DNA of 32,000 nt. Origin: Candidatus Saccharimonadota bacterium (lineage in GTDB: Bacteria; Patescibacteriota; Gracilibacteria; UBA1369; 2-02-FULL-48-14). The position numbers were made by a program, and so were the translations under genes. Of the stretch, positions 7,068 through 22,830 are shown piece after piece. The DNA is taken from NCBI GenBank assembly GCA_965230905.1, contig OZ246396.1, positions 180,001-212,000 of the forward strand. Reading direction: 5' to 3'. Under the pieces are notes generated by a model, which saw nothing but the letters and a program-made list of their open reading frames with translations, was not told the origin of the DNA and ran no database searches. Numbering within the stretch: the stretch's first letter is position 1; each line of letters starts with the position of its first letter.

Positions 7068-7123
7068 ACCGCAACACAAAAAAATAAACGGCAAGTTGAA
7101 AGTGGATTTGCAGATTAAATGGG

Positions 7124-7145
7124 GGCGCGAAATTCGCGTCTTTTT
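7124..7145 (+). terminator. Possible second small hairpin plus T-tract between the pilin and giant genes
   Basis: GGCGCG (7124-7129) pairs with CGCGTC (7135-7140), including one G-U pair, around a 5-nt loop, followed by TTTTT (7141-7145). The stem is short and the call is weak. Confidence 0.3.
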
Positions 7146-7153
7146 GCTAGAAT
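7145..7153 (+). promoter_or_regulatory. Extended -10 element (TGcTAGAAT) 7 nt upstream of the giant-gene ATG
   Basis: TGCTAGAAT at 7145-7153 with no good -35. The A of the ATG at 7160 sits where a transcription start would be expected, which suggests a leaderless or near-leaderless mRNA. Confidence 0.3.
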
Positions 7154-7159
7154 TCCTGC

Positions 7160-10100
7160 ATGCGTCCACACCACTCTACGCATCGAATAAAACGACTTGT
7201 AATTAAGGGCTTTCTGCTCACGTTTTTGTCGTCACTGCTGCCCATGGGGCAAGTGGCTTCGGCGCTAAGCATCATTGACCAGGCTAGGCCTTCGGTCATT
7301 CAACCGGGCGGAAGTTTGCCGGAAATACGCAGTGTGGGCAGTGTGGAAACCCGTTACGGGCTGGTGGCGATTTTGGTGGACGACGAACTTCTGGGATCCA
7401 GCACCAGTGGAGGCGGATTCTTTTCGTTTTTGGGAACCGCTGGCTTGAAGGAAAAAATTCAGACCTATGCCCAGGATGTGCAGGCCACCCTGCCCTGGAC
7501 CAAAACGGTGATTGTGGAAGTGGCCGATACGGATACGCCGGTGGAGATTCAGCGCATGCTCGAGCGTTTTTACTTTGAAGGCAACCCAGAAGACTCCGAC
7601 CCGACCAAACTGAGTGGAGTGGTGATTGTGGGCGACGTGCCCCTGCCCGTGGTGAATAAATTGGGCAACCGCTTTATTTCTCTGCTGCCTTATACTGATT
7701 TTGAAGAGCCGGCGTATTTGCTCGATTCCGAAACGCAGGATTTTCTTCCCAACGCGGCGGCGCAAAATTTACAAAACGAAATTTGGCATGGAGTCATTGT
7801 GCCGCCACTCGATGGACAAGAGGGAATCGACTTGCTCGCGACTTATTTCGATAAAAATCATGCCTTCCATACCGGCGACGAGGATGCCACAAGCTTTAAT
7901 CAAAAAGTTTTCATTGGGGATTTGATAACCGAAGCTTCTGCGCTCAACCCCACGGCCTTTGCCAGCTATGAACGCTTCACCAATCTGTGGGAGGAGATTG
8001 CGTACTACCGCTACACCAACGATTTGGTGGAAGACTTGTACACGCAGATGCAGACCTCGGTGGAAGAAGGAGACTTTTTGGACAACGATAGCGATGGATT
8101 TTATGACGAGGAAGCGTCCAATGGAATCGATGACGACAACGACGGCTTAGTGGATGAAGATTTGGGAGATGGATTTTTTGGAATCGACAACGACGGCGAC
8201 GGCGTGGTGGATGAAGACAGTTTTGAAGACAACAACAACGATGAAGGTTGGATTTACTCCGGCTATGAAGGCAGCGAAGCCGAGTCGATATTTTCGGATC
8301 ACATGCTCGATGAAGATCCTCCCGGAGACACCACCGGAGGCGAAGACCAGGATGGAGATGGGTATTTGGATGGAGACGGTTGTCCCGGGCTCTGTGGACA
8401 GGACGACAACGGCGATGGCGTAGATTCCGACTTGGACGGATATCCCACCGGAATTGAAGTGCTGTACCATTGGGATTGGGCTGACGAACGGATACCTTGG
8501 GGCAACGTGAAGGATTGGACCAATGCGGAATTTGCTCAAAGTTTTTCTAGCGACGAAGCGGCAACGGCGTATTTGTCTGAAATGTTTGTGGATCAATTTT
8601 TCGGAGACGCCTATAAGAGCCCCACGTGTTATTTTGACGGAGTGTACCACCCTGAGTACGACGACGATGAAGATGGTTTTTGTGATGAAGACGGAAAAGA
8701 AGAGATGCAAATTTGGGCCAATGAAAATGGAACCCGCGCCAGCGGGACCTGCGCCTACAACGACGGGGATTGTGATGGGGTGATTGATGAAGATCCCATT
8801 GGACTTAAGAGCGAGGGAATGTTTGATAATTTGCCGGACATTCAAGCTAAACGTGTGGTGGAGAGCCTGACCAGTCGCTACGCCAGTATGTTTGATGAGC
8901 CACAGGGGGTGTGGAACCGAATCGTGGGGCAAACGGGCCGCTATGAAACCCGCAGCAGTGATGGAGAAACCGTGAGCAATGACTACGACAGCACCGTTTC
9001 TTTGATCGCCAAAAAAGATGAATTGGTTTTGCAGTACCTCACCGAATTGAATGCCAGCATGGAAGCAAAAGTGGACGCCATTGTGGAAGACCACCTGGCG
9101 CAGGACATTCCTTTGATTGCGGGGGTACAAATTACCGGAAAAATCACCACGGAAAATGAGGATGGCGACGAAGAAGGCACCGACGAGATTTGTGATGACG
9201 AGGGTGAGGTGGATTTGGGAAGCGACAAGTGTCTGCAGTTTGTAAATCAGTCGGGTTTTGACCCGCTTGCCTTTGGTATTCTTGATGAGGAAAGCAGTTT
9301 TCTAGATATTTTTAAATTGGGCGCAGAGCACTTTTATATTGCCGGCGAACATTTGTGGGACGTCACTTCACCTGCTCAATGCACCACCTTTGCCGGAACG
9401 GATGAAGTGGGCGGACAGTTGGCGCAATTCAATAGTTTGTATAGCAGAGAATTTAGCGTGGCGCACAACAATATGAGCATCGAGGAATTGCAAGACTACC
9501 GCAATTGTGTGCCGGAATTTGCCTCCTACTTAAAAGACATTCCACAAGTGTGCAACGTGGCCACCACGGTGAAATCCGTCCGCACTTTGGATGGCGCGAA
9601 GGCGCCGGATGAAGACACCGATACGAGTAAATGGGACGTGGGGGCTGAAGCGTGTTTTGAATTCAGAGAATTGGAGACCTTCAACGATTACACCCAGTCC
9701 CAAGCGGAATTCAACAACTGGCTTTCGTTGAGGATTCGGGTCTTTAGAGAGAGCGGGGCTACCGACACCGGGGAAACTTATCAGGAATTTTTAGGCCTGG
9801 TGGAGGAACAAATGGACACCTACACGCCCCGCCCCGACGAGGCCACGCTCCGAAAACAATTCCGCGAACTCGACTTGCTCCGTGCCGATGACGAACGCAG
9901 CTACACCATGATCGATTTGCTCGAAGAATTGGGCTACAAAAATGTGAGCGACGACGATGTGGATACCTTCATCGCCATGCTGGACGATGAATCGGACTTT
10001 GTGACGGTAGATCTGGATGTGGACGATCTGCGGGATCTTGTGGACGAACTGGATGAAATTGTGCAGCTGCAAGACAACGACCGACTTATTATTAATCATC

Positions 10101-13100
10101 CCAAACAAGGAAGCGGGATGGACGACGTACAAAGCTTGGAACTCATTTTCAATCGTTTGTATTTGATTGGAGGTGACGTGGTGGGCGAAGCGGGAGTTTA
10201 CGGACTCAGCGACACGCGTCTGGCTATGAACACGATTACGTCCGTGCACAAACACGTGGAGCCCACTTCAGAAACCTTGAATGCTCAGGTGACCAACGCC
10301 GGTTCCCCCAATATGCCCATCGACGCGACGCGGCGCATTTCTTTTATCGACAATGGGGACGACGCGCGGGAACTCGTGTACGTGAACGTGTTTGAAGCGG
10401 AAACTGTGGAGGATGTGCAGGATCAAATCACCGCGCTCGCGGATGAAATGGCCATAGTGGCGGGTGGTGGCAGTTTTGTGAACGATGTTAAGAATTTTTA
10501 CGACAACAAGAAAGACGGAATCAATGAGTATCAACTCAAGGACGCCTTGGCGTGGCGATACATGAGCATCGACGAAAAACACCGCTACGTGCTCAGCCAT
10601 TATTTGGGCGAGCAAGAGGCTATTGTGAGCAAGGCGCGCAAGGGATATGAAATGGTTTCTATTATTGCGGATGGAAGTGCCACCGAGATTTCGTATTCCA
10701 TGAACGGCGGCAAGCCCGGCACCGAAGAAGATCCCGAATACAATTACCGTGATGACGCCGGCATTGCAGCGGCTTTGGCGGCATCCCAAGACACGGCCGA
10801 GGAACTTGAGCCCATCAGCCCCGTGAGCAACACCACCCCGGTGCTGCTGAGCGAATGGATTGAGGCCATGGACGATTGGATGGCTGAAGTGGAGGATTCT
10901 TTATCCAGCGGCGGAACCGCGAACTATTGTGGCGAAGATTATATTTACCCAAGTGACATCAATACGGACAGCGACGCAAGCGGCATACCCGATGGCGCGG
11001 ACGCCACCACTTCCCTGCTGCTCTCCAGCGACGACATCAATGTTTTGCTGGCGGAAGGCGAGGGCAATGACAGCTACGTGGTTTCCGTGGGAGCCAAACA
11101 AGCCGACGGCACCATCAACACGCTGGACAACTACACTCAAGTGAAGCTGCAAATACTCAGTGGCGACACGGTGGTGGAGGTTCAGGGCACCGACACGCTG
11201 ACCCTCACCGGCGGAGTGGCCGTGTTTGAGCTGAAAGGTGAATTGCCCGGAAGCTTCGCGCTGCGAGCCGAGGCGGCCAACCGGGATGATGTGAGCAGCA
11301 GCAACTCCTTGAACGGAACCGTGGTGAGCAAGTATGTGAATATTATGACGCTGATAAAAGAGATGACGGGAACCGACGGCGAAAGCACCGTGGTGCAGGG
11401 CAATCGTATTGAAGTCACGGACGCCGAGGGTGAAGTGCGAGCGGTTTTGGATCCGGAAACGGGAGGAATTGAGCTCAGGGGTGCGGAGGCCGAGCTGCGC
11501 GAGGCCGAAAGCTCTGCGCCTACGCGCATCGCGATTTTGGGAGAGGATGGAACGGTGTATGGAAGTTTTTTCCTCATTCCTTCCACGGAACGGGTTGCGA
11601 TTGGAAACGGTCCGTCTGGGGTCTTTGTGCAAGTGGTTGGCGGCGCGGCCAGCGCGGCGATGGATGAAAATGGCGTGGCCCTGGAAGTCACTTTGGAAGA
11701 CACTGCCGTGCAAATGGGACTGGTGACCGGACTGGGACAAATCGCCGTTGCGGACGGCTACTCTTTGGAATTCGACAACCCGAGTGAAATCAATTTGTAC
11801 GACCCCGTTCATGTTTTGAGCGGCGACGGAGAAACTTTATTCACCGTGACCATCAATCATTCTTTCACCGAGGGAAACATTGAGGAAGCAATCGTGGAGG
11901 GTGTGCCCGAAGATTTCTCTAGCTTGGGCAGTTTTGATCATGAGCCCGGTGTTTATGCGGCTTCTAAAACGGCGGCCTATGAACGCATCGCGGTGAGCAG
12001 CGGGGACAGCGTGGCCAGCACCAATATTTTCACCAACGACATCCCCGCCGATGGAAAATCTGAGATTTACGTGCGTGCGGAGATCCGTGACCAAGCCGAC
12101 AAAGTCTACGGCGACGACAACACCAGCGTGATTGAATTCGTGCTATCTACCGAGGATCATGGAGAAATCGAGACTAAGCGTGTGCAAGTGAGCGGCGGTG
12201 TGGCCGAAGCCAAATTCGTCACCACCAAAGTGGCTGGAGACGTGACTGTGGAGGGCCGCATAACGGATGGATCGCTTCCCTCCCTAGACGCGCAAATTCA
12301 TGTGTACCCCGGCGAGCCCGTGCGCCTCGAGCTGCAAGGCGAATCGAGGGTGCTGCCGGCCGGTGCGGAAGCCGCCACGGATATGACAGTCTACTTGTAC
12401 GACCAATTTGGAAACCTGGCTTCCAACGGATTCTACCCAGTCACCTTCACCACGGAAGGCGGCGTGACTTTGCTCGATTTGAATGACGAGGATTCCACCG
12501 CAGACGGCGTGCAAGTGACCACGGCGGACGGCAGCATAGCATTCCGCGTACTGGCGAGCCCTGAGGTGGAATCGGCCAGCGTGCAAGTGTCCCTTCCTCA
12601 AATTCCCGACGGTGGAGACAGTTTCAATATTGAGCACAAAGAAAGTTTGGCGCTCAAAGTGAGCACCACCAAACCTTACCTCTTTGCCGGCGGAAGCAAC
12701 GGACAAACCCTCACGGTGAGCGTGGTGGATGAGTTGGGAATTCCTGTGAGTGGATTCAATGGCGATGTGCTGATGAGCGTGAGCGACCCCGGCTACGGAA
12801 GTTTTGAAAGCGATACCTTGACCCTGGACAACGGCAAGGCTTCCACCACCCTGCTGCCGGGAACCTTGGCGGGCAGCGGATCCATTATTGCGGAAAGCGC
12901 CGGCATACAAGGCGGCAGCTCGACCGTGGTGCTAAAACCCGCCGACATTTATGAACTGCGCATACGAAAAGAAGACGGTACCTTCAATATGGCAGCCGGA
13001 GAAAAGGAGAAATTTTATATCGAAGGTTTTGACGTGTATGGAAACTTGGTGGACACCGACAGCAGCACCAGCGGAACCCTGCGCCTCACGGACGCGACGG

Positions 13101-16100
13101 CGGAGTATGGAACTTTGTCGTCTGAAACTTTTGCTTTGAATCAAGGGGTGGCGACCGTGAGAGTGACCACGGGTGAGGTGAGCGGAAAAATCAGCTTAGT
13201 GGCCAGCGCGACCGGCCTTTTGGCCGGGGTTTGGGGCGGCGACGTGAGCTACCGCATCAGCGGAGAAGAGTTTGCGGACATGGATTTGCAAATGCTTTAT
13301 GGGTCTGTGCTCGGGGCGCCGTTCGGAGACGTGACGCAAGAAAACTACGTGGCCGGGTGGATGACCTTCAATGGAAAAACCCAGGCCGTGACCAGTTTGA
13401 TTTCTGAGCCCATACCCAAGAAACGCATCGCAAGCGTGGACGCCAACGGAGCCGTGAGTCTGCCCGAAGACGGAATGGTGAGCCAAGTGGTGAATGGGGC
13501 TGGAAGCGAACTGCCCACGCACATTCAGTGGCGCTCCTTCCCCGACGACATTTTGATTGGGGAACTCTTTTACGTGCTGTCCGAGGACATGGAAATTAGT
13601 GCGGAACTCATCACTTCTAAAGACACCTTCACGCTGGAGGCAAGCGACGGAACTTGGGTGCTGCGTGAGGACAACGCGGCCGTGGTGAAAGTGCGCACGG
13701 ATGGCCAAGTGGTGCTGGTGGATCCCACGTATTCTTTGGTGGTGAACGGGGCCGCGCAGGGTCTGGGCTTTGGAGTTTTGAAGAACACGGAACAAATCAT
13801 GAGCATTGATTTCAGCGGCGAATTTGGCACCGATGTGAGCGCCGTGGACACCAATTTTGACTTGGAAGACTGGGCCAGCCAAACAGCCGGCGTCTATCTT
13901 AAACCCACCGGCGCGAGTGTGAACCGCATAGTGCGCATACCCACGGGAAACAGTTCCCAAAATCCTATGGGTCTGGCCATTATCGATCCTGAAACCGACT
14001 TGGCTAAAGAAATGCAGCCTTCGCTGGGCTACCAAAGTTTGGAGGCCGCGGAAGACAATGGAAACATTGGATGGGAAGATGAGAACAAACATCTGCTGCT
14101 CTTTGCAGCGGGAAACACCGTGGGGCAATCCAACCTCTACTACCCTTCTGAAGTGGGCGTGGTGCTGGGAGATCCAACCATTAAACTGCCCACCTTGGGA
14201 GAGCTGGGGACCTTGGGTTACACGAGTGATGTGGGGACGCTGGTTTCTACATCCAACGAAGAAGTGCTGACGCTGATGGACCTGGATTACAACGGCGATG
14301 ACTTGCCCGATGTGCTCACCGCTTATAAAGACGGCCGCATTGAAGTGCTGCAAAACGCCAAGGCCGCGACGCGTCTGCACAACCGCGGTGAACTGCTTTA
14401 CATTGAAAACGGCATCTCCTCCATCGACAAAGGCGATTTCAATAACGACGGCCTGGAAGACCTGCTGATTGTGACGGAAGAAGCCTGTTACGAAGGCGAA
14501 ATGTGCTTGTACTTATACGAAAATATTGGCGGAGGATTTGTGGCCAAGAACTTGGCGCTCACCGGCATTTCCGGCACGCCCACCCAAGTGGAAGTCGGCG
14601 ATTTGAACGACGATGACTACGACGACTTGGTGATTGTGGATGAGAACATGGTGATGTACACCGTGTGGAATTCGGAAGGCGTTTTGGAAACCGTGGACGA
14701 GGTGAAAGATTTTGGGCTGAACGCGGATCCCGAAGAAGAGCTGGGCGCCGATGTGGCCGTGCGCACGGATGACTTGGCAAAAGGTTCCGTTTCTTTGGGG
14801 ATTTTAACGGATGATTTCAGTGAAGAAAATGGAGCGGAGGACTTTTTGGCGGCGCTGGGCGTGGACGACGATTACACCGCGGCTTCTACCGAAGGCTTGC
14901 AGCGAAAAGAAAATCAGGCCTTTGAATACGCCGACAGCCGGGCGATGGAAGACTTGGTGGCGGTGAGCAAAACCGTGGCGGACCCCAGTAGCGGCAGTGT
15001 GGAAGTGGGCGATGTGCTCACCTACACCGTGACCGTGGAAAATATTTCCGGCGCGGCGTACTCTGCGCTTTACCTTTCCGACAGCGTGGGCAATTATTTC
15101 CAATTCGATGAAGACAGCTTTGCTTGCAGCGATTGTTCCCCTGCCAATACAGGCGTGACGATTCAAGAAGGCGACAACAACCGACCCTTTATTTATGGAC
15201 CGCTCAGCCTCAGCAACGGGGAAAGCCTGACCTTCACCTACGACGTTTCCGTGGAATCCTTGCCCAAACTTTCTGTGATGCTTTCGCAGGATTTGTACAC
15301 GGATTACAAAGACGACAACTATATGGACATTGGGGTTTCGCCCGAGGGCAACACCAGCGGGGAATTGATCGTTTTCTATTCAGATGGATACGTGACCCAT
15401 GTGCTTGAGGAAGGTTTCTTGGGTCTGGGTGGAAACAGCTTCAAGCAGGTGAACTACCAAGAAAAGGCCTATTCCCCCGCCACCTACGCCGAAGAGGACA
15501 ACACCATACCAAACCCCTTTGGAGACGAAGACGGCGACGGCGTGCCGGATTTCTTGGCCAAGATGGATCAGGAAAAAGGAATTCCCGTGGCCAAGAATGG
15601 AGACTTCGATGCCGTGGGAGAAGTGCTGGGAGCCGTGGACGAAGATGAGGATGGTTACTACTCCACCGATGAAATGTTCGACAACACCGAGGACGCGGAC
15701 GGCGACGGCATCAACGACATTATAGATATTTGGGTGAGCGGAAATGATTTGCTGCTGGATCCCACTTTGAATTTGGAAGCAGCGGACGACGACGTGGAAC
15801 TGAGCGATGAAGAACTGGAAATCGACCTGGAAGCCGACATTGCTTTGCTGGATAAGGAAGTGGAAGGCCTGACCGATAAAATTGAAGAAATCGTGTCCAT
15901 GTTCACCTGCAACGGAGGGTGTATTGCCTTCCCGGGAAGCGTGGCCTTTTTAGCGCCGGGAAATTACCACGAGCCACTTACCGGGACGACCCTGTTTTTG
16001 GATCCCGGGACGCCGATCTTTGGAATTATCAATGTGTTGCCAGTGGCTTGTACGGCACAGATGTGTTACGCCCCGGGCGCCCTGCGCCTGTACTTAGCGC

Positions 16101-19100
16101 CCACCACCACGCTGGGGCTGGGGCTGGGAATTTGTCTGGGGCCCTACCCCGTGGGCCAGTGTTTCGCCTTCAGCATTCCTTTGCTGCAATTGCTGAGCCT
16201 TTGTGATGTGATCAATGGATACATTTCTGACGGGCTTTCGTCCGCCAGCGCCTTTGTGACGGGCGAGGCTGACACCGCTTACAATGTGGTTGAAAACCTT
16301 TCCAGCGACAATGGAAGCACGGGACTCGAAAGTACGGTGTTTGCCTCATACGAACCGCCTGTTTCGGCGAACTTGAATGTCCAAGTGCCCGGCTTCCCCA
16401 GCATCTTCACGGAGTGGTGGAAGGCACAAAAAGAGGAATTCTTTAAAGTGCTGGACCTGCCCGATATCACGTTCATTTATCCCGACCCCAAGAGTCTGAC
16501 CACGGAATTCACCGGCATCAGCGAGCGCATTGATAAGAGCCGTGAAGAAGACGCGGTGGACGCCGACGGAACCAGGAAAATCGACGAACTCACCAGCGGC
16601 ATTTTGGGGCTTGAGAAATGGCTGAACACGGCCCACGCCCTGCCGCTGATTGATATTGAGCCGGAACCCGTGACCATCCGTTACCCCATGCTCACGCCTG
16701 AGGAAATTGAAATCTTTAAGCGAGATATGCAGGCCTGGGTGGACGACGCTAAGTTGGAGTTGGAAGCGCTCCGAGAGCAAATTGAAATCATGGAGGATTT
16801 AACGGAAATACAAAAAGCTGCCATCGAAGAATTGGAGACCACCGTGACCGAAGCCATCACCGCCATTGAAACCAATTTGGCGATATTGGAAAGTTATACG
16901 GAAATTCCTGAAAAAATTCTGCTCATACGGGACATTGAAGCCTACTACGCCAAGACCATCATTTGTTATGTGGACGCCATTTTAAGCAACACGGCGGGCT
17001 ACCTGACCGAGAACGTGGAACGAATAGAAGCCTGGGGACAGTGGGTTGTGGCTCTGCAGGAAATTGTGGACGGCTGGCAGGTTCTCATAGACCTTTCGGC
17101 GGATCTTATGGATTCCTGTGACAAATGCACCAACCAACGTTACAGCGGCTTGCAATTGCTCTTCAGCTTGTTCGTGTTCATCCCTGATTTTCCTGTGGTG
17201 GAACTGCCCAAGCTACCGGACATTGTGATCGACGTTTCCAATATTCAGGCTGGAATGGACATCGTGTGGCCGGATATAAAGTTTGTGCCGGAGCGTATCA
17301 ATATTCCGGAGTTGCCGCGTCTGGTTATTCCCGACTTGGATATTAAACTGGATGCGGACTTTGATTTAGAACTGGAAATTCCCCTGCTGCCCACTTTTGA
17401 TTTTAACTTTGAACCGCCGGCCCTGCCGCCCCTCACCCTGCCCAATTTACCGAGCCTACCGCCTCCCCCTGCCTTGCCCGAGTTGGATCCAAGCCTGCAG
17501 GCGGCCCTGAACATTGCCAGCAATATTTTGAAGATCGTGTGCATCATCCGCCAAGGGTTCATTCCCACGCCCGAGCTCACCCTCAAGTCGAAAATTGAGG
17601 AAATCACGGAACGTCCGGGGGGAATTGTGCTGCCCTCTGACCTTTCCCAAACGGTGGAATGGCCTGAGTTTAATTTCGACTACTGGAAAGAAATCCGCGT
17701 GAACACCACGCTGAATCTTAATTTGGATTTCTCGGCGCTTTATAACGAAATTTCCGACCTGGGAGAAAAGAGCAACGCAGAGATTACGAAGTTTGTACAA
17801 GAAGCGATCAACGACAATTTGAATGATTTGCAGGATGAAATTAAGTCGATCTTTGACTTGATTGGAGATCAGGAATTGGAAGTGGGCGTAGACGTGGACA
17901 TAGAGGGATCTGCGGACTTCAGCGGAGACGACGCGGGGTTGGATGGAGACGCGGACGCGGAGGGAGAGGCAGAGGGTGATTTCAATACGGAACTGGAGTC
18001 TTATGAAGAAGCCATGAACACCGCTCTGTCTTACAGCGACAACCCCTTGGTGCTGCAAAACCTCGGGGCTTTGAAGCAAGTGATGGGCGGCCTGCAAACT
18101 AAAGTGGATGCGTGGAGCGCTGAGCTGCCTGACGAAGTGCTGCTGAAAGGCGAAGAGGAAATGCTGGCTTTGGACGATCCACGGCTGCACCGCTACAACG
18201 AGATTGTTCAGAACCCTTCTTTCGATAAAGATTTCTTGGCGAGCATTGAAGGCACGCCCCTCGCCTCTTTGGTCACTTTGCGAGATTCCATGATTGCCTA
18301 CACGGAGGAGCTGGATCAAGGCACCATCGCCCTGCGTGGAATGGATGGGGAGTCTTTCCAACGTTACTTGGCTTCCGAAAATATGAGCTCTCCATTCATG
18401 TTGGCGAGTGAAGAAGGCGGCTTCATGGACGCAGCCGCGAACTGGAATCCAGAAAAGTGGGCAACCCCAGCCGAAGATGACGAAGCGGTGGAATTGGCGT
18501 CTGAGTCCACGGATGGACTCGAGCTCGGCACCCAAGCCAGAACCTACGACGAAGGATTGTTCCTCTACAACGCAGAACTGGGCGTGAACGAACGGCTCTC
18601 CGACTACACGCAAGAAGCCAAGGAAGCCAGCAGCATTTTGATGATTGATTTGGACGGCGACGGCGATGAAGACGTGGTTTATTCCATGGGAGGCGACATC
18701 TACTTAAAAGAGAATCACACCGAAGCGCCCACGCTCAGCTACGTGAGCAGTGACCCCGAAGAAAGCACGGTGCCCGACATGGACCCCGGTTACGGCAGCG
18801 TGCAAAATCTGAAACGTGGAAAGAACGATTATGAAGAAGCGAGCTTCTCCTTCTCCCCTTCCGATTCCATTGGATACGACGTGCGTTTCTACGATTCTTT
18901 GGACGCGCAGGAATCTGAACCGGATGAAAATATCAAACGTTTGCTGCTCTTGGTGGACAGTGAAAATGAGAGCAGCACCTTCGCCGATTCAACTGGCAAG
19001 TCCGCCGGGCAATTGCGCAGCAGCCGTCTGTGGGCGGATAACGTGAGCGGAAGCGTGACGGTGAAGAACGGATACAAACGCACGATTATAAACGCGAATG

Positions 19101-21607
19101 GAGAAATCACCGTGAGTGAAGCGGTGGTCTTCCAAACCATTGAGGACAGCGTGATTGAATTTGAAGCGGATGAGGGCGCCACGTCCATTGATGTGCCCGC
19201 GCACACCGTGGTTTCCTTTGCCCAGGGTACGGAAAAAAACATCCGCGTGGAAAACGGTTCGGTGTACTGGGTGGACATGGGTGAAACCGTGGAGGAACAA
19301 GATTTGGCGGAGGGCATGGAACTCTTTGCGGAGGAATTGGTGGCACTGGAAAGCAAGGGGGCCGATGCAGTGCTGGTCACCACCGAGGGCACGGAACTGC
19401 GACTCGATAAACAAGAAGCCTTTGTGATGGATAAACTCATCAGCCAAAGCAGTCCATCGGCCAATATTGAGTTAGAAAATGGGGCTTACTACACGGTGAG
19501 CCGCAGCGTGCAAGCCGACGGAAGTTTTGGAACCCTTTCCGACACCATTCTGCTCAATCCGCAGGTCTGTGCGGACGACAGCGAACCCTACACCCTGATT
19601 GATGATGGCGGCGCCGATACCGATGGCGACGGGGCCATTGAAGTGGCGATTTTCTCCACCAAAGAACTTTCTGCCGAAGGTTCCTTCGACAGCGATAGCG
19701 AGATTGTGGACGCGTACTGGGATCTCGACAGCGGCGTGGACAGCGACGGCGACGGCGTGAGCAACAACGATGAACAAGTGATTGGTCTCACCGCTGAAGT
19801 GGGCCCTTATGAAGATTTGAATACGCGCACCGTTACGCTCTACGTAACCGATGCCGCCGGCAATGTGGGTGAAACGGAAGTCGCGGTGGAAATTTATGTT
19901 CCCGACATTACTTTGGCGGACGCGAGCATCGATGCGGTGAGTGGATTCACCACGCCGAGCAGTCCCCTCTTCCCCTTCGATTTGGTGCGTGACCGCAGCG
20001 GCGCTATCAACGAAATCGGCACGGGTTACTCCACCGATGAAGCGGGAGATTTCAACGAAGACATGATTCCTTCAGACCTGCTCTCCGTTTACGACGGCGC
20101 GGGCGAAACCATTGCTCAGTTCAATCCCACTACTAAGCAAGTCGTGGTCTACGACCCGGCTTACGACGCCATGGTCCTTTCTTCCGATGCGGACTGGCCT
20201 TCCCGCTTGGCCGTGTACGAAAAGAGTCTGGGCATGGTGATGGGCAGCTTCCTATTTGTGGCAGACGGCGAACACCCCATTCAAAAGATGACCCAGCCCT
20301 TGGCTGACTTGGATCTTTCTATATACCAAGGGCTTACGGTGTATCCGGTGGCGGGTGAAGACGGTTACGAATTCACGGATAATTCCTTGGTGGCGCGCGA
20401 CGACTTGGGCTCGCTCGACTTCATTGTGAGCGAAACGGGAAACATCACTATTTTTGACGAGCGCTACACGCTGGTGAAACGGGAGGCCGCGTCTTTGGAT
20501 GAGTACTTGGTGATTGAAGTTTACGACAACGGCACCTTGGAATTGGAGATTTGGCCTGGCACGCCTAAAGCAAGGTATTTGGTCAGCGCCGTGGATTTGG
20601 ATCTGCCTCCGTCCACTTTGATTGGAGCGGGCGATTCCCTGAGCGCGGACTACCGCCTCAACTTTGAGGACATTGAAAACGATGACGAGCTCTACCAAGA
20701 CATTGCCGAGCTCGTGGAACGCGACGTGCTGGAGGGCTACACCATTGAAGGCCAAGCGTACTTCAAGCCCGATCAGTCCATCACTCGTGCTGAATTCACC
20801 AAGATTATTTTGGGCATACTCTGTATCACGCCAAGCGACGAAGCGTACCTGCTTCCCTCTGTGTTCAACGACATTTTGGACAGTGGCGCGTGGTACTATT
20901 CCTTCACCAAAGAATCCTTCCTCCGCGACCTGATTACGGGTTATTTGGGCGAAGTGAATTCCAGTGGTGTGGCTCCGTTCAAACCCAATGCCACCATCAC
21001 CCGTGCCGAGGCCACTAAGATTGTACTCGAGGCCCTGAACCAGGAAGGCATCATTGAATTGCCTGCCGATTTAACCGGCGAGCCTTGGTATGAACCGTAC
21101 ATGGAAATCGCGCAAGATCTAACGCCTTACCTCACCGGTGACGCCACCGCGGGTGAAAGCAATTTCATTGTGACGGAAGCAGAAGCCGCCGATCCTTCTC
21201 ACAAAATGACGCGTTACGAATTTGTAGAAATGTCCGTGCGGGTGCTCAAGGCTTACAATTGTTTCGACCTCGATAGCGACGGCGACGGACTAATCAACTA
21301 CGACGAAGAAAGCAAATACGGCACCGATCCCTACAACCCCGATACCGACAGCGGAGGCGTGGACGACGGCAGTGAAGTGGGCCGCAGCAGCGATCCTTTG
21401 GACGAAAGCGATGACTTTGGAGACGGTTCGCTCGAAGGAGTGGAACCCGGAATTTATGCGGTGCGTGAAGCCTGTATGGCTTGCCCCTGCAATTCCACCA
21501 TCGATTACGACGCTGACCTTAGACCGGGTGATGAAGTCTTTGCTATAATCCGCAATGACGCCGGCGAAATCTTTGGAGTGAGCAACACCTTAACCATTCA
21601 AGAATAG
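7160..21607 (+). CDS. Giant secreted, SLH-anchored mosaic surface protein (4,815 aa), putative adhesin/fibre
   Basis: Uninterrupted 14,448-nt ORF with a signal-peptide-like N-terminus (MRPHHSTHRIKRLVIKGFLLTFLSSLLPMGQVASA). Many extracellular modules can be recognised by eye and are listed as separate 'other' features below. The reading frame is consistent and rich in GAC/GGC/GTG codons throughout. Confidence 0.9.
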   Translation: MRPHHSTHRIKRLVIKGFLLTFLSSLLPMGQVASALSIIDQARPSVIQPGGSLPEIRSVGSVETRYGLVAILVDDELLGSSTSGGGFFSFLGTAGLKEKIQTYAQDVQATLPWTKTVIVEVADTDTPVEIQRMLERFYFEGNPEDSDPTKLSGVVIVGDVPLPVVNKLGNRFISLLPYTDFEEPAYLLDSETQDFLPNAAAQNLQNEIWHGVIVPPLDGQEGIDLLATYFDKNHAFHTGDEDATSFNQKVFIGDLITEASALNPTAFASYERFTNLWEEIAYYRYTNDLVEDLYTQMQTSVEEGDFLDNDSDGFYDEEASNGIDDDNDGLVDEDLGDGFFGIDNDGDGVVDEDSFEDNNNDEGWIYSGYEGSEAESIFSDHMLDEDPPGDTTGGEDQDGDGYLDGDGCPGLCGQDDNGDGVDSDLDGYPTGIEVLYHWDWADERIPWGNVKDWTNAEFAQSFSSDEAATAYLSEMFVDQFFGDAYKSPTCYFDGVYHPEYDDDEDGFCDEDGKEEMQIWANENGTRASGTCAYNDGDCDGVIDEDPIGLKSEGMFDNLPDIQAKRVVESLTSRYASMFDEPQGVWNRIVGQTGRYETRSSDGETVSNDYDSTVSLIAKKDELVLQYLTELNASMEAKVDAIVEDHLAQDIPLIAGVQITGKITTENEDGDEEGTDEICDDEGEVDLGSDKCLQFVNQSGFDPLAFGILDEESSFLDIFKLGAEHFYIAGEHLWDVTSPAQCTTFAGTDEVGGQLAQFNSLYSREFSVAHNNMSIEELQDYRNCVPEFASYLKDIPQVCNVATTVKSVRTLDGAKAPDEDTDTSKWDVGAEACFEFRELETFNDYTQSQAEFNNWLSLRIRVFRESGATDTGETYQEFLGLVEEQMDTYTPRPDEATLRKQFRELDLLRADDERSYTMIDLLEELGYKNVSDDDVDTFIAMLDDESDFVTVDLDVDDLRDLVDELDEIVQLQDNDRLIINHPKQGSGMDDVQSLELIFNRLYLIGGDVVGEAGVYGLSDTRLAMNTITSVHKHVEPTSETLNAQVTNAGSPNMPIDATRRISFIDNGDDARELVYVNVFEAETVEDVQDQITALADEMAIVAGGGSFVNDVKNFYDNKKDGINEYQLKDALAWRYMSIDEKHRYVLSHYLGEQEAIVSKARKGYEMVSIIADGSATEISYSMNGGKPGTEEDPEYNYRDDAGIAAALAASQDTAEELEPISPVSNTTPVLLSEWIEAMDDWMAEVEDSLSSGGTANYCGEDYIYPSDINTDSDASGIPDGADATTSLLLSSDDINVLLAEGEGNDSYVVSVGAKQADGTINTLDNYTQVKLQILSGDTVVEVQGTDTLTLTGGVAVFELKGELPGSFALRAEAANRDDVSSSNSLNGTVVSKYVNIMTLIKEMTGTDGESTVVQGNRIEVTDAEGEVRAVLDPETGGIELRGAEAELREAESSAPTRIAILGEDGTVYGSFFLIPSTERVAIGNGPSGVFVQVVGGAASAAMDENGVALEVTLEDTAVQMGLVTGLGQIAVADGYSLEFDNPSEINLYDPVHVLSGDGETLFTVTINHSFTEGNIEEAIVEGVPEDFSSLGSFDHEPGVYAASKTAAYERIAVSSGDSVASTNIFTNDIPADGKSEIYVRAEIRDQADKVYGDDNTSVIEFVLSTEDHGEIETKRVQVSGGVAEAKFVTTKVAGDVTVEGRITDGSLPSLDAQIHVYPGEPVRLELQGESRVLPAGAEAATDMTVYLYDQFGNLASNGFYPVTFTTEGGVTLLDLNDEDSTADGVQVTTADGSIAFRVLASPEVESASVQVSLPQIPDGGDSFNIEHKESLALKVSTTKPYLFAGGSNGQTLTVSVVDELGIPVSGFNGDVLMSVSDPGYGSFESDTLTLDNGKASTTLLPGTLAGSGSIIAESAGIQGGSSTVVLKPADIYELRIRKEDGTFNMAAGEKEKFYIEGFDVYGNLVDTDSSTSGTLRLTDATAEYGTLSSETFALNQGVATVRVTTGEVSGKISLVASATGLLAGVWGGDVSYRISGEEFADMDLQMLYGSVLGAPFGDVTQENYVAGWMTFNGKTQAVTSLISEPIPKKRIASVDANGAVSLPEDGMVSQVVNGAGSELPTHIQWRSFPDDILIGELFYVLSEDMEISAELITSKDTFTLEASDGTWVLREDNAAVVKVRTDGQVVLVDPTYSLVVNGAAQGLGFGVLKNTEQIMSIDFSGEFGTDVSAVDTNFDLEDWASQTAGVYLKPTGASVNRIVRIPTGNSSQNPMGLAIIDPETDLAKEMQPSLGYQSLEAAEDNGNIGWEDENKHLLLFAAGNTVGQSNLYYPSEVGVVLGDPTIKLPTLGELGTLGYTSDVGTLVSTSNEEVLTLMDLDYNGDDLPDVLTAYKDGRIEVLQNAKAATRLHNRGELLYIENGISSIDKGDFNNDGLEDLLIVTEEACYEGEMCLYLYENIGGGFVAKNLALTGISGTPTQVEVGDLNDDDYDDLVIVDENMVMYTVWNSEGVLETVDEVKDFGLNADPEEELGADVAVRTDDLAKGSVSLGILTDDFSEENGAEDFLAALGVDDDYTAASTEGLQRKENQAFEYADSRAMEDLVAVSKTVADPSSGSVEVGDVLTYTVTVENISGAAYSALYLSDSVGNYFQFDEDSFACSDCSPANTGVTIQEGDNNRPFIYGPLSLSNGESLTFTYDVSVESLPKLSVMLSQDLYTDYKDDNYMDIGVSPEGNTSGELIVFYSDGYVTHVLEEGFLGLGGNSFKQVNYQEKAYSPATYAEEDNTIPNPFGDEDGDGVPDFLAKMDQEKGIPVAKNGDFDAVGEVLGAVDEDEDGYYSTDEMFDNTEDADGDGINDIIDIWVSGNDLLLDPTLNLEAADDDVELSDEELEIDLEADIALLDKEVEGLTDKIEEIVSMFTCNGGCIAFPGSVAFLAPGNYHEPLTGTTLFLDPGTPIFGIINVLPVACTAQMCYAPGALRLYLAPTTTLGLGLGICLGPYPVGQCFAFSIPLLQLLSLCDVINGYISDGLSSASAFVTGEADTAYNVVENLSSDNGSTGLESTVFASYEPPVSANLNVQVPGFPSIFTEWWKAQKEEFFKVLDLPDITFIYPDPKSLTTEFTGISERIDKSREEDAVDADGTRKIDELTSGILGLEKWLNTAHALPLIDIEPEPVTIRYPMLTPEEIEIFKRDMQAWVDDAKLELEALREQIEIMEDLTEIQKAAIEELETTVTEAITAIETNLAILESYTEIPEKILLIRDIEAYYAKTIICYVDAILSNTAGYLTENVERIEAWGQWVVALQEIVDGWQVLIDLSADLMDSCDKCTNQRYSGLQLLFSLFVFIPDFPVVELPKLPDIVIDVSNIQAGMDIVWPDIKFVPERINIPELPRLVIPDLDIKLDADFDLELEIPLLPTFDFNFEPPALPPLTLPNLPSLPPPPALPELDPSLQAALNIASNILKIVCIIRQGFIPTPELTLKSKIEEITERPGGIVLPSDLSQTVEWPEFNFDYWKEIRVNTTLNLNLDFSALYNEISDLGEKSNAEITKFVQEAINDNLNDLQDEIKSIFDLIGDQELEVGVDVDIEGSADFSGDDAGLDGDADAEGEAEGDFNTELESYEEAMNTALSYSDNPLVLQNLGALKQVMGGLQTKVDAWSAELPDEVLLKGEEEMLALDDPRLHRYNEIVQNPSFDKDFLASIEGTPLASLVTLRDSMIAYTEELDQGTIALRGMDGESFQRYLASENMSSPFMLASEEGGFMDAAANWNPEKWATPAEDDEAVELASESTDGLELGTQARTYDEGLFLYNAELGVNERLSDYTQEAKEASSILMIDLDGDGDEDVVYSMGGDIYLKENHTEAPTLSYVSSDPEESTVPDMDPGYGSVQNLKRGKNDYEEASFSFSPSDSIGYDVRFYDSLDAQESEPDENIKRLLLLVDSENESSTFADSTGKSAGQLRSSRLWADNVSGSVTVKNGYKRTIINANGEITVSEAVVFQTIEDSVIEFEADEGATSIDVPAHTVVSFAQGTEKNIRVENGSVYWVDMGETVEEQDLAEGMELFAEELVALESKGADAVLVTTEGTELRLDKQEAFVMDKLISQSSPSANIELENGAYYTVSRSVQADGSFGTLSDTILLNPQVCADDSEPYTLIDDGGADTDGDGAIEVAIFSTKELSAEGSFDSDSEIVDAYWDLDSGVDSDGDGVSNNDEQVIGLTAEVGPYEDLNTRTVTLYVTDAAGNVGETEVAVEIYVPDITLADASIDAVSGFTTPSSPLFPFDLVRDRSGAINEIGTGYSTDEAGDFNEDMIPSDLLSVYDGAGETIAQFNPTTKQVVVYDPAYDAMVLSSDADWPSRLAVYEKSLGMVMGSFLFVADGEHPIQKMTQPLADLDLSIYQGLTVYPVAGEDGYEFTDNSLVARDDLGSLDFIVSETGNITIFDERYTLVKREAASLDEYLVIEVYDNGTLELEIWPGTPKARYLVSAVDLDLPPSTLIGAGDSLSADYRLNFEDIENDDELYQDIAELVERDVLEGYTIEGQAYFKPDQSITRAEFTKIILGILCITPSDEAYLLPSVFNDILDSGAWYYSFTKESFLRDLITGYLGEVNSSGVAPFKPNATITRAEATKIVLEALNQEGIIELPADLTGEPWYEPYMEIAQDLTPYLTGDATAGESNFIVTEAEAADPSHKMTRYEFVEMSVRVLKAYNCFDLDSDGDGLINYDEESKYGTDPYNPDTDSGGVDDGSEVGRSSDPLDESDDFGDGSLEGVEPGIYAVREACMACPCNSTIDYDADLRPGDEVFAIIRNDAGEIFGVSNTLTIQE
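8081..8803 (+). other. Acidic DxDxDG-type calcium-binding loop cluster (domain of giant protein)
   Basis: Examples: DNDSDGFYDEE, IDDDNDGLVDED, IDNDGDGVVDED, EDQDGDGYLDGDG, DDNGDGVDSDLDG, DDDEDGFCDED, NDGDCDGVIDED. Further copies lie at 15512-15733, about 19600-19775 and 21266-21420. Confidence 0.7.
11009..11340 (+). other. Ig-like beta-sandwich domain (Big-type) of giant protein
   Basis: About 110 aa: LLLSSDDINVLLAEGEGNDSYVVSVGAKQADGT...TLTLTGGVAVFELKGELPGSFALRAEA. The pattern of alternating beta-strands is typical of bacterial Ig-like domains. Confidence 0.5.
12029..13228 (+). other. Four tandem Ig-like (invasin/Big_1-style) repeats of giant protein
   Basis: Four units of about 100 aa. Each contains 'ADG/AGxxxxxx(V/L)xVxxxDxxGNxV' and a later 'G(V/K)Axxx(F/L/V)xxxxxxG' motif. 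Examples: IPADGKSEIYVRAEIRDQADKVY...GGVAEAKFVTTKVAGDVTV; TDMTVYLYDQFGNLAS; QTLTVSVVDELGIPVS...NGKASTTLLPGTLAGSGSI; EKFYIEGFDVYGNLVD...QGVATVRVTTGEVSGKISL. Confidence 0.6.
14278..14680 (+). other. FG-GAP/VCBS-type repeats (integrin-alpha-like) of giant protein
   Basis: DLDYNGDDLPDVLTAYKDGRIEVL, GDFNNDGLEDLLIVTEE and GDLNDDDYDDLVIVDENMVMYTVW. One more copy, DLDGDGDEDVVYSMGGDIYL, lies at 18647-18715. Confidence 0.65.
14963..15257 (+). other. DUF11-style conserved repeat domain of giant protein
   Basis: VSKTVADPSSGSVEVGDVLTYTVTVENISGAAYSALYLSDSV...GESLTFTYDVSVES matches the usual pattern (K.v......v..Gd.ltYtitv.N.G...a..v.l.D.lp...g.s.t.ty.v.v). Confidence 0.5.
15908..16230 (+). other. Hydrophobic Cys/Pro/Gly-rich core segment of giant protein
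   Basis: CNGGCIAFPGSVAFLAPGNYHEPLTGTTLFLDPGTPIFGIINVLPVACTAQMCYAPGALRLYLAPTTTLGLGLGICLGPYPVGQCFAFSIPLLQLLSLCDVINGY. It has seven Cys and is almost free of charged residues, in contrast to the highly acidic flanks. I recognise no family. Confidence 0.6.
19634..19905 (+). other. PKD-like domain of giant protein
   Basis: AIEVAIFSTKELSAEGSFDSDSEIVDAYWDLDSGVD...RTVTLYVTDAAGNVGETEVAVEIYV follows the PKD pattern (FDaSgS.D.dG.I..Y.WDfGDG...h.Y...G.Y.VtLtVtD..G......v.i.V). Confidence 0.55.
20663..21255 (+). other. Three S-layer homology (SLH) motifs of giant protein
   Basis: FEDIENDDELYQDIAELVERDVLEGYTIEGQAYFKPDQSITRAEFTKIILGIL; FNDILDSGAWYYSFTKESFLRDLITGYLGEVNSSGVAPFKPNATITRAEATKIVLEAL; EPWYEPYMEIAQDLTPYLTG...PSHKMTRYEFVEMSVRVL. 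The F.P...iTRAE signature is present in the first two copies and degenerate in the third. Confidence 0.75.
21266..21420 (+). other. Thrombospondin type 3-like repeat of giant protein
   Basis: DLDSDGDGLINYDEESKYGTDPYNPDTDSGGVDDGSEV matches the bacterial TSP3 motif DxDxDGxxDxxE..GTDPxxxDTDxxGxxDGxE. Confidence 0.7.
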
Positions 21608-21616
21608 TTCCACGCT

Positions 21617-22204
21617 ATGCTTAAAAAATTTGAAAATAAATTCTTTCTGGTTTGCGCCGCACTGGTGCTGGTCTTCAATGGCCTGCTCTATGCTTTTGCA
21701 GCAGAAACTGAGCTGGTGACGGATGTGCCCAAGCCGGTGGATGGAACGGATTTTCAATGTGGTTACGACGTGATGCAAGAAGCCCAAGTACTGGTGGATT
21801 CGTATCAAGTTTTTTTGGACGATTACTTTAAACAAGTCACGCCTTCGAGTGAACAAGTGGACGGCGCCATGAAGTACTACCGCCTGATGGAATTCTCCAT
21901 TCAAAAAATCTACCAAAGCAACTTAAGGCAAGACACCAACTTCAATTTAAACAGCAGCATTCAAGCCAACTCTTATTGTGCTTACGTGCGTGACCTTTAT
22001 TTGGACATCGCCAGCGCCATGCTGCAAAAACAAGTCATTGCTTCTTCCAGCAGCAAACGCACCTTCCTTATGGTGGACGGACTCAAAGCGACCAACGAGC
22101 ACATGGAAATTTTTGCAGATGAGTTCAGTGCCGTTTTCCCTGGCTTCTTTACTAAATTCAACAACGCTTTACCTTGTTACGCGCACCAATGTATAAACAA
22201 ATGA
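21617..22204 (+). CDS. Secreted hypothetical protein 1 of the post-giant cassette (195 aa)
   Basis: Starts 9 nt after the giant-gene stop. Signal peptide MLKKFENKFFLVCAALVLVFNGLLYAFA|AE. Four Cys in the mature part. Ends ...FPGFFTKFNNALPCYAHQCINK. Confidence 0.8.
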   Translation: MLKKFENKFFLVCAALVLVFNGLLYAFAAETELVTDVPKPVDGTDFQCGYDVMQEAQVLVDSYQVFLDDYFKQVTPSSEQVDGAMKYYRLMEFSIQKIYQSNLRQDTNFNLNSSIQANSYCAYVRDLYLDIASAMLQKQVIASSSSKRTFLMVDGLKATNEHMEIFADEFSAVFPGFFTKFNNALPCYAHQCINK

Positions 22205-22830
22205 CTTGGGTCAAATGGTTCGCGCTCGCCTTTGTGGCGGGATTCCTGCTCCCCCGCACGTACGGGCCGAGCCTAAGTGCGAGCCTACTCGGCCCCACTA
22301 GCAGCACCTTTGACGGCATGGACATGACCGATGCCATCACCGAATACCATTTGCGTGCCAACCAAACCGTGGATCAGTTCCTGGATGTTTTGCTGGACCC
22401 GGACCTTTCTGAGTTGGTGGTGAGCTACCCTCCCGACGACAGTGAGTGCACCGGGAATGTTTCCACGTATTGTTTGGCCGTTTCGCTCAACAACAACCTC
22501 GAAGACTTTGCAATTTACCTCCAAAAAAATCAAACGAGTTTTAGCGACAGTCTTTTTGAAGACGATGCAGCGCTGAGTCTGCAGGACGCTCTGGACACGG
22601 CGGCACATCAACGCAGCACCGTGGACGAACAAGTGGCCTTGGCTGAAGACAGCATCGATCTGACCCTGGCCGTGTACAACCAAGTGCAATTGGTTTACCC
22701 CGTGCACAAAGAGATGCTCGCTTTGATCCAAAACCTGGACGATTACCGGGGCAATCTTTCAAAAATTCGCGACGTACTTGAGGAATATCCTTCTAAATTC
22801 AACGGCGCCAGTACCGCCCAATGTAAATGA
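22201..22830 (+). CDS. Secreted/membrane-anchored hypothetical protein 2 of the cassette (209 aa from ATG 22201)
   Basis: The ORF track starts this gene at 22174, but the ATG at 22201 forms an ATGA overlap with the upstream stop and gives a clean hydrophobic N-terminus (MTWVKWFALAFVAGFLLP). Three Cys. Ends ...YPSKFNGASTAQCK. Confidence 0.75.
   Translation: MTWVKWFALAFVAGFLLPRTYGPSLSASLLGPTSSTFDGMDMTDAITEYHLRANQTVDQFLDVLLDPDLSELVVSYPPDDSECTGNVSTYCLAVSLNNNLEDFAIYLQKNQTSFSDSLFEDDAALSLQDALDTAAHQRSTVDEQVALAEDSIDLTLAVYNQVQLVYPVHKEMLALIQNLDDYRGNLSKIRDVLEEYPSKFNGASTAQCK

Follow-up and report, generated by a model that had tools for sequence, protein, structure and literature searches.

The window analysed here is a stretch of 32,000 nucleotides from a Candidatus Saccharimonadota bacterium (assembly GCA_965230905.1, contig OZ246396.1, positions 180,001 to 212,000 of the forward strand), and all coordinates below refer to it unless a relative is named. 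It contains a giant open reading frame encoding an acidic protein of 4815 residues. In the middle of this protein lies a module of about 630 residues (residues ~2915-3540), built around a core that is almost free of charged residues and rich in Cys, Pro and Gly. This module, its conservation, its predicted structure and its possible role are the subject of the present work. Residue numbers follow from (nucleotide - 7160)/3 + 1. The giant reading frame, the parts of the module in order and the S-layer homology (SLH) domain are listed here, with secondary structure taken from AlphaFold2 (AF2) and its confidence given as the predicted local distance difference test (pLDDT).

7160-21607, forward strand: giant open reading frame, 4815 residues, acidic, with Big-like, FG-GAP/VCBS, DUF11 and TSP3-like regions, a C-terminal SLH domain and a terminal CxxCPC motif
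15812-15904, forward strand: acidic amphipathic helix preceding the module, residues ~2885-2915 (from sequence, orthologue alignment and AF2)
15908-16204, forward strand: charge-poor Cys/Pro/Gly-rich core, residues 2917-3015 (from composition statistics, Cys conservation and AF2)
16205-16264, forward strand: helix after the core, AF2 helix at residues 3014-3035 (CDVINGYISDGLSSASAFVTGE), beginning one codon within the core
16265-16384, forward strand: first variable linker, Ser/Gly/Asn-rich, residues 3036-3075, poorly conserved
16385-16489, forward strand: highly conserved segment N.(Q/R)(V/I)PGFPSIFTEWWKAQKEEFFK.LDLPDITFIYPD, residues 3076-3110, AF2 helix and short strand
16490-16603, forward strand: second variable linker, acidic, residues 3111-3148
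16604-16696, forward strand: conserved short helix and beta-hairpin, residues 3149-3179, LEKWLN..LPLIDIEPEPVTIRYP
16697-17122, forward strand: three long helices, residues 3180-3210, 3216-3246 and 3249-3321, AF2 pLDDT 82-94
17111-17140, forward strand: DSCDKCTNQR motif, residues 3318-3327, with its CxxC at the C-terminal end of the third helix
17144-17206, forward strand: hydrophobic segment SGLQLLFSLFVFIPDFPVVEL, residues 3329-3349, not transmembrane-like
17219-17296, forward strand: strand stretch IVIDVSNIQAGMDIVWPDIKFVPERI, residues 3354-3379, AF2 pLDDT 73-92, indel-free in the family
17297-17488, forward strand: Pro-rich segment of (I/L)P repeats including PPPP, residues 3380-3443
17489-17569, forward strand: amphipathic helix SLQAALNIASNILKIVCIIRQ, helix at residues 3444-3464 in a part reaching residue 3470, with the invariant Cys3461
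17570-17779, forward strand: C-terminal part of the module, residues 3471-3540, helix, strand and helix, with the motif PE..LK..IE.(I/L)T(E/Q)RP
20663-20797, forward strand: SLH domain, residues 4502-4546 (Pfam E 2e-7 and 3e-9)

The composition of the core is highly anomalous for the protein in which it sits. Among its 99 residues three are charged (E, D and R), where about 24 would be expected (binomial P 4e-9); 500 shuffles of the residues produced no 99-residue window with fewer than 7 charges, and in the real sequence the window that comes next holds 12. The core also holds 7 of the protein's 34 Cys against an expectation of 0.7 (P 7e-6), and it is rich in aromatic residues and in Gly and Pro. 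An initial annotation, made from the sequence alone, had described an almost charge-free, Pro/Gly-rich stretch with seven Cys at 15908-16230, and the composition statistics bear this out: those 108 residues include 5 charged ones, 14 Gly and 11 Pro. Nor is the scarcity of charge peculiar to this genome. All 123 family members that we compared have a charge-poor core of about 98 residues, with a median of 4% charged residues and 27% Pro+Gly.

The surrounding protein is strongly acidic, as the same annotation had proposed (D+E 19.2%, K+R 5.4%, together 24.6% of residues), and its Cys, 0.7% overall, are grouped in a few conserved clusters. It begins with a signal-like hydrophobic segment (residues 18-36) and carries the SLH domain close to its C-terminus, which scores 31.2 and 37.0 bits against a Pfam cut-off of 20.8 (PF00395). 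Because of these two features the sequence points to an extracellular protein, again in agreement with the initial description. The SLH domain is a probable cell-wall anchor, and additional copies likely follow after residue 4546. Pfam also places FG-GAP at residues 2426-2492, DUF11 at 2600-2699, weak Big-like or invasin-like matches at 1723-1922 and a TSP3-like repeat close to the C-terminus; the same scan of the whole protein leaves residues 2700-4500 without any match. An identical giant protein is present on a 1.307-Mb metagenome contig of the European Nucleotide Archive.

Some observations concern the rest of the giant gene rather than the module. Residues ~40-300 (window 7160-8100) are among the best-conserved parts of the protein, with orthologue identity of 0.7-0.8 and family-wide motifs (G..PLP.V, PYTDF, E.WHG, FDKNH). 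They have no Pfam match, nor did Pfam and NCBIfam give anything credible for the N-terminal 800 residues, and this region looks like another unannotated domain. At the other end, after the SLH and TSP3-like repeats and about 40 residues before the C-terminus, a CMACPC cluster of the CxxCPC type (window 21473-21490, residues 4772-4777) is conserved throughout the family. The gene itself has a GC content of 0.50-0.57 (window 7000-20000) against about 0.43-0.49 in its flanks. Its GC and AT skews are strongly positive, the coding strand being purine-rich, which fits a heavy use of Asp, Glu and Gly codons.

An exhaustive HMMER search of 1.84 billion cluster representatives returned 397 relatives of the module at E ≤ 1e-3, of which 219 at E ≤ 1e-30. 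Word-indexed homologue searches with residues 2860-3490 and 2905-3125 gave no match, not even the window's own protein; in view of the 397 relatives we give these negatives no weight, since the index evidently misses giant proteins. Among the 150 matches listed, the full-length proteins have about 3500-6000 residues and carry the module mid-protein, the shorter ones being apparent fragments. A core-like Cys motif is present in at least 126 of the 150, a lower bound because the strict patterns with which we sought the core and CxxC motifs missed some members. Every named member belongs to Candidatus Peregrinibacteria or 'Gracilibacteria' (in NCBI usage), under names such as S-layer homology domain-containing, DUF11 domain-containing, VCBS repeat-containing, uncharacterized repeat or hypothetical protein. 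Additionally, a genome scan located orthologues in ten Candidatus Peribacteria/Peregrinibacteria metagenome-assembled genomes (59-77% identity over the full 591-residue query), and a metagenome scan added 13 loci with identity down to 40%; a scan of viral contigs found no relatives of the module. It is the entire architecture that is conserved in the family, not the module alone. In windows of 100 residues the module shows 58-81% identity and the rest of the protein 40-81%, which places the module among the more conserved parts, and in close orthologues residues 3301-3500 are among the most conserved stretches (identity 0.73-0.81). In two of the relatives the giant reading frame is interrupted, about 200 residues after the module in L002 and about 90 residues before it in L006. 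These could mark pseudogenes, or they could be due to errors, of assembly or by frameshift, on short contigs.

The pattern of Cys conservation is strict. We aligned 123 module sequences taken from cluster representatives at no more than 50% identity, and eight Cys proved at least 99% invariant: 2917, 2921, 2992, 3001 and 3015 in the core, 3320 and 3323 in the CxxC of DSCDKC (residues 3318-3323, nucleotides 17111-17128), and 3461 in the amphipathic helix. Others are variable and are gained and lost in pairs, which is the behaviour of disulfide partners. Cys2964 and Cys2969, the CTAQMC of the window, form a lineage-specific pair that occurs together in 22 of the 23 and 24 sequences having one or the other. 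The pair near residues 3210 and 3222 is found in most of the family and is missing from the window's lineage; its members co-occur in 86 of 104 and 86 sequences. Conservation of the core Cys and of DSCDKC among orthologues, left open by the initial annotation, is substantial, extending to both Cys of the CxxC, to Cys3461 and, in the core, to five Cys out of seven. As for the disulfide-knotted core that it had raised as a possibility, the invariant Cys and the joint occurrence of 2964 and 2969 support it, with the bonds themselves presumed. Further invariant motifs of the module are R.Y..PT.T..LG, PGFPS(V/I).T.W, LDLPD, SCDKC...R and PK(L/W)PDI..D.S.IQAG.

Could such a hydrophobic block be a membrane anchor? 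In that case its segments would span, or dip into, the cell's own cytoplasmic membrane, and the protein would be bitopic or polytopic with two huge ectodomains, as the initial annotation had suggested. Indeed, four segments reach a Kyte-Doolittle average of 1.57-1.73 over 19 residues, near the classical threshold of 1.6. However, transmembrane helices encoded in the same window, used as positive controls, lie well above this range (2.2-3.1 for the five best helices of PilC and a major facilitator superfamily (MFS) transporter together with the pilin helix). We also summed values of the published Hessa scale over 19 residues, a crude test that ignores position effects. The best central 19-mers score +4.8 to +6.1 kcal/mol against -4.7 to +2.8 for the control helices; on the same sum the signal-like segment at the N-terminus scores +4.2, and the best 15-mer of the hydrophobic segment after the CxxC has a dG of +3.6. 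Family-wide, the best 19-mer has a median of +5.8 in the core and +9.1 in the segment after the CxxC. Moreover, with 27% Pro+Gly, one of these residues interrupts the core every few positions, AF2 predicts the core as strands and not helices, and the pattern of invariant Cys is suited to an oxidising environment outside the cell. Although the test is rough, these segments score far from the control helices, and we reject the membrane-spanning reading, which we hold to be most improbable.

Two AF2 models were computed, one of the module (residues 2900-3540, alignment of 37 rows; mean pLDDT 69.7, predicted TM-score (pTM) 0.45) and one of the core (residues 2908-3112, 46 rows). Both give the core the same pattern of strands, at residues 2934-2937, 2944-2948, 2954-2956, 2975-2982, 2987-2993 and 3000-3006, with pLDDT of 67-86 in the module run and 79-90 in the core run. 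Structure prediction followed by Foldseek thus yields a beta-rich core without a significant match among PDB or viral structures. The best E against the PDB was 0.73 for the module model and 0.22 for the core model, and against the BFVD viral library the module model reached 0.028 with a tape-measure protein, at a root-mean-square deviation (rmsd) of 49; the best matches in the two libraries have TM-scores of at most 0.19 when normalised to the query. Sequence comparison agrees: Pfam and NCBIfam searches of the whole protein found nothing for the module, Pfam searches with 46 separate core sequences nothing credible, and PDB sequence and profile searches with module and core a best E of 0.085. 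The initial impression that no known family is represented has thus held up in all of these searches. Three particular candidates were discarded. The Hsp70 substrate-binding domain recurs as the top Foldseek match, with a probability of 0.07-0.21 and a query-normalised TM-score of 0.06-0.14, and was treated as noise. A thioester or isopeptide adhesin domain would call for a CGQ-type motif, which is not there; a weak TIGR04226 match falls in the DUF11 region, outside the module. A Cys4 metal site at the CxxC is disfavoured by Cys3269, conserved in 72% of members, and by the extracellular setting.

Around the core, the module alternates between conserved and variable parts. The acidic helix preceding it shows heptad-like 3/4 spacing of hydrophobic residues across about 25-30 residues and is helical where modelled (AF2 model residues 2-16), in agreement with the acidic, heptad-like helical region reported in front of the core, a coiled-coil oligomer being no more than a possibility; upstream of it the orthologues are variable, with indels. 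The helix after the core has a family-wide fixed length of 21 residues. The genuinely variable linkers are those at residues 3036-3075 (pLDDT 29-50, length range 19-59) and 3111-3148 (pLDDT 43-45, length range 10-174, conservation 0.13), and the segment between them, residues 3076-3110, has a mean top-residue frequency of 0.66. The long helical segments that had been noted at about 16690-17100 correspond to the three AF2 helices, which we read as a three-helix bundle with presumed packing. The region that follows, from the CxxC through the amphipathic helix (residues 3318-3470), is almost indel-free in the 123 diverse sequences. DSCDKC, the adjoining hydrophobic stretch GLQLLFSLFVFIPDFPVV (residues 3330-3347) and the amphipathic segment ALNIASNILKIVCIIRQGFIP (residues 3449-3469) all lie within a few codons of where the initial annotation had placed them. 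AF2 predicts a short helix at residues 3329-3338 (pLDDT about 50), and the strands at residues 3354-3379 may be read from the model as a beta-hairpin. The Pro-rich segment, including PPALPPLTLPNLPSLPPPPALP (residues 3419-3440), was also correctly located, but its designation as a spacer does not stand. Its length is nearly constant (median 63 residues, interquartile range 60-69), many of its prolines are invariant in the 123 sequences, and although AF2 gives it no regular secondary structure the pLDDT is 65-86. Given this near-constant length in a nearly indel-free region, it is a structured strap and not a spacer.

We propose, with a probability of about 0.55, that this previously unannotated module is an extracellular, folded and probably disulfide-stapled joint or docking hub in a Sec-exported, SLH-anchored giant protein of Peregrinibacteria; its most likely role is structural. 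The core, about 100 residues long, would form a compact beta-rich domain that the conserved Cys hold together. After it, two variable linkers would lead into a rigid assembly made of the three-helix bundle ending in the CxxC, the hydrophobic segment, the hairpin, the fixed-length Pro-rich strap and the amphipathic helix with Cys3461. The whole would act as a disulfide-locked joint or docking hub in mid-fibre, between a distal half of adhesin type (Big-like, FG-GAP, DUF11 and calcium-binding TSP3-like repeats) and a proximal half that ends in the SLH anchor. The greasy surface of the core is most likely covered, because a near-chargeless domain in a protein with about 25% charged residues is unlikely to face water. 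It might be covered by the module's own strap and amphipathic helix, by further copies of itself, or by small proteins encoded downstream.

Several points weigh against this proposal. The overall AF2 confidence is moderate, with a mean pLDDT of 66-70 and a pTM of 0.42-0.45 for the two models, and the proximity of Cys to Cys, the burial of the core and the packing of strap and helix onto it are presumed. The CNGGC motif itself is poorly modelled (pLDDT below 50 in the core run). The number of Cys is 11, an odd number, in 69 of the 123 modules, and therefore at least one of them is unpaired or is paired outside the module. The transmembrane test is a crude sum over a published scale rather than a trained topology prediction, and a literature search returned no experimental or literature evidence on this protein. 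Finally, such hydrophobicity and such conservation would equally be expected of a membrane-active element, a reading to which we return below.

The genes that flank the giant gene are listed here.

2189-3385 and 3382-3954, forward strand: two single-transmembrane proteins before the T2SSE gene, matching no family
3954-5204, forward strand: T2SSE ATPase (Pfam E 6e-126)
5201-6403, forward strand: T2SSF platform protein (Pfam E 8e-53)
6472-7020, forward strand: pilin with N-methylation motif (N_methyl E 7e-9), directly upstream of the giant gene
21617-22204, forward strand: small secreted-type protein of 195 residues, directly after the giant gene
22174-22830, forward strand: small secreted-type protein of 218 residues, overlapping the preceding gene
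22827-24650, forward strand: secreted-type protein of 607 residues, overlapping the preceding gene
24641-25702, forward strand: secreted-type protein of 353 residues, overlapping the preceding gene

The two single-transmembrane proteins may be PilN/PilO-like pilus alignment proteins, and the genes for ribosomal L10 and L7/L12 lie further upstream on the same strand. In one relative, L025, whose giant protein is about 30% identical, the whole order from L10/L12 to UvrA is kept (its upstream part at 514-7020 in the window and at L025 2065-9706). There, as in the window, L10 and L7/L12 are followed by the two single-transmembrane proteins, T2SSE, T2SSF, the pilin or pilins, the giant gene and the four small genes, beyond which a helix-turn-helix gene and UvrA lie on the opposite strand. 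L026 and most of the close relatives examined also show the pilin, the giant gene and the four small genes in succession. The distant loci L027 and L028 have no adjoining pilus genes and carry three or four secreted proteins downstream, most with a Cys-containing tail. Indeed, none of the relatives examined lacks the downstream set behind its giant gene, whether or not pilus genes adjoin (cassettes at L025 25290-29545, L026 19662-24272, L027 20193-23343 and L028 22916-29580). Because the cassette persists without the pilus genes, the constant partnership is that of the giant protein with the small secreted proteins, and the linkage to the pilus is a property of a large subset.

The four downstream proteins have ordinary signal-peptide-like N-termini and no Pfam or NCBIfam match, and PDB searches with two of them returned nothing. 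They share a conserved Cys, 2-4 residues from the C-terminus in the window and 1-4 over window and relatives together (for example HQCINK, TAQCK, KGYCK and ERQCN). We considered whether they might be minor pilins and discarded the idea, as they have no N-methylation motif. Further along the window are two reading frames of the forward strand that gave no tblastn match in the relatives L002-L011: one of 131 residues at 26381-26776, with a lipoprotein-like N-terminus (LLLTACGG), and one of 345 residues at 28053-29090, without a family match.

This partnership makes it conceivable that the module is primarily a dedicated docking or oligomerisation site. Its main job would then be to join chains or to bind the small C-terminal-Cys proteins covalently, and disulfide exchange at the CxxC or at an unpaired Cys could build a multi-protein fibre or collar linked to the pilus apparatus. 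This alternative overlaps with the joint or hub that we prefer, the difference being that partner binding becomes the primary function. The persistence of the giant gene together with three to four downstream genes for C-terminal-Cys secreted proteins, even where no pilus genes adjoin, argues for it, and so does the odd number of Cys in most modules. Of the small proteins in the window, three likewise have an odd Cys count, and the fourth has an even one once the Cys in its signal-like segment is discounted. A CxxC at the end of a helix, the position it has here, is a typical redox-active arrangement. However, the parity of the Cys is inconsistent among orthologues of the small proteins, which resemble no known fold and diverge faster than the module (33-61% identity in the compared loci, whereas the module keeps 54-77% in closer relatives and 40% in the loci furthest removed). 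We regard docking as the main function as a rather unlikely alternative.

A more far-reaching alternative concerns the lifestyle of these bacteria. Peregrinibacteria and other members of the candidate phyla radiation (CPR) have tiny genomes and are thought to depend on hosts. Here a single gene, conserved across the phylum, takes up 14.4 kb of a genome of about 1.3 Mb (as judged from the 1.307-Mb contig); it lies in a type IV pilus operon in the window, in close relatives and in the relative that is about 30% identical. The module might be a membrane-active element aimed at another cell: the core would stay masked until contact and then insert as an anchor, a pore or a fusion-like device, possibly joined by the hydrophobic segment after the CxxC and by the amphipathic helix, with the helical bundle and the Cys serving as trigger or scaffold. 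The extreme and strictly conserved depletion of charge fits this idea, as does the character of the core, which is rich in aromatic residues, Gly and Pro and is both bounded and interrupted by invariant Cys. By analogy, the order of the elements resembles the internal fusion loops and subsequent heptad repeats of class I viral fusion proteins, as well as the central hydrophobic stretch of large clostridial toxins. Moreover, the bacterium is one of the CPR, for whose members a life attached to host cells is assumed (PMC4736985, PMC8080830), and type IV pili, in whose operon the gene is found in the window and in closer relatives, have been proposed for host contact (PMC8080830). On the other hand, the fold comparisons reported above reveal no likeness to viral or PDB structures (best E 0.028 for the former, 0.73 and 0.22 for the latter, TM-scores of at most 0.19), and viral contigs hold no relatives of the module. 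The core is predicted with good confidence as a stable small beta domain, not as loops or amphipathic hairpins, and on the crude scale no segment has a propensity to insert. Some 1300 residues separate the module from the SLH anchor and some 2900 from the free N-terminus, which is not obviously the position of a distal tip. We consider a membrane-active element unlikely.

In its most specific form, which we find decidedly improbable, this idea would make the module a contact-triggered device that inserts into the host membrane from a pilus-associated giant fibre of an episymbiotic CPR bacterium. The pilus would draw the host close, reduction or rearrangement of the CxxC and of the Cys-stapled core would unmask the charge-free domain, and this domain would enter the host envelope, where it could hold the epibiont in place or form a channel for the uptake of host metabolites or DNA. 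The extreme and conserved hydrophobicity and the order of the elements would suit a role at host membranes, and the presumed lifestyle would provide a motive, but the comparison of folds gives no positive support. If such a device existed, bacteria would possess a non-viral equivalent of fusion or translocation machines for which no database holds a homologue; more generally, a hydrophobic domain that engages host membranes would establish a new class of devices for cell-cell interaction. If instead the module is only the structural joint that we favour, it adds a new domain family whose wider interest is limited. In either case, it is an unannotated region of extreme composition and, at about 630 residues, an expressible target for structural and biochemical work on CPR surfaces. 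The invariant Cys, together with PGFPS(V/I)xTxW and SCDKC, form a family-defining signature by which these genes can be found and annotated.

It is instructive to compare the module with hydrophobic domains from other systems. Fungal hydrophobins are proteins of about 100 residues with few charges, a beta core and conserved, disulfide-forming Cys in the pattern C-CC-C-C-CC-C. The core resembles them by analogy in size, scarcity of charge, beta core and several conserved Cys, but it has five invariant Cys instead of eight, does not show their pattern and is embedded in a protein of 4815 residues. In the clostridial toxins TcdA and TcdB, which are very large and secreted, a long hydrophobic translocation region with few charges occupies the middle of the chain, and in class I viral fusion proteins a hydrophobic region bounded by Cys is followed by long helices, then by a short Cys motif and a further hydrophobic segment. 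With both, the giant protein shares by analogy a hydrophobic region in mid-protein, and with the latter an order of elements of the fusion type. However, the core here is predicted to be beta-rich and Cys-stapled, no transmembrane-like segment lies downstream of the module, so that there is no C-terminal transmembrane anchor, and the three helices are contiguous in one chain, which, presuming their packing and oligomeric state, we read as a single-chain bundle. Foldseek gave no match to a class I fusion fold in the PDB or BFVD at E ≤ 0.001, the sole envelope glycoprotein appearing at E 1.5 with a probability of 0.01 and an rmsd of 50, and neither Pfam nor PDB searches matched a clostridial toxin translocation domain, hydrophobins or other hydrophobic secreted domains.

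The setting of the gene recalls two further systems. Like the PilY1/PilC adhesins, the giant protein is large, secreted and not a pilin, and its gene comes immediately after a pilin gene in a pilus operon, with several small accessory proteins encoded alongside. In contrast to them, it is about four times larger and carries an SLH domain, it matches no PilY1/PilC domain, such as the C-terminal beta-propeller, in Pfam or NCBIfam at E ≤ 0.01, its small companions have signal-peptide-like N-termini rather than the pilin N-methylation motif, and in distant relatives the pilus genes are not adjacent. With the SLH-anchored proteins of monoderm bacteria (PF00395) it has in common a C-terminal SLH domain scoring above the Pfam cut-off, which makes anchoring to the wall through this domain likely. 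Nonetheless, the SLH domain covers only about 45-180 residues near the C-terminus and leaves the central module unaccounted for.

The closest counterparts are the giant surface proteins of CPR bacteria. Candidatus Peribacter riflensis has been reported to have large extracellular Cys-rich proteins (PMC4736985), and Vampirococcus lugosii giant membrane or surface proteins (PMC8080830). These were described in general terms only, and in our literature search we found no description of this orthologue group, of its central module or of its position beside pilus genes. The giant protein also differs from the Cys-rich proteins in that it is not rich in Cys overall, its few Cys being clustered. The common ground is nevertheless broad: the same phylum-level group, a length of several thousand residues, a signal peptide, FG-GAP/integrin-like, DUF11 and Big-like repeats, a proposed role in attachment and type IV pilus genes in the same genomes. 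The protein, with its so far unannotated module, belongs among the giant surface proteins of CPR bacteria.

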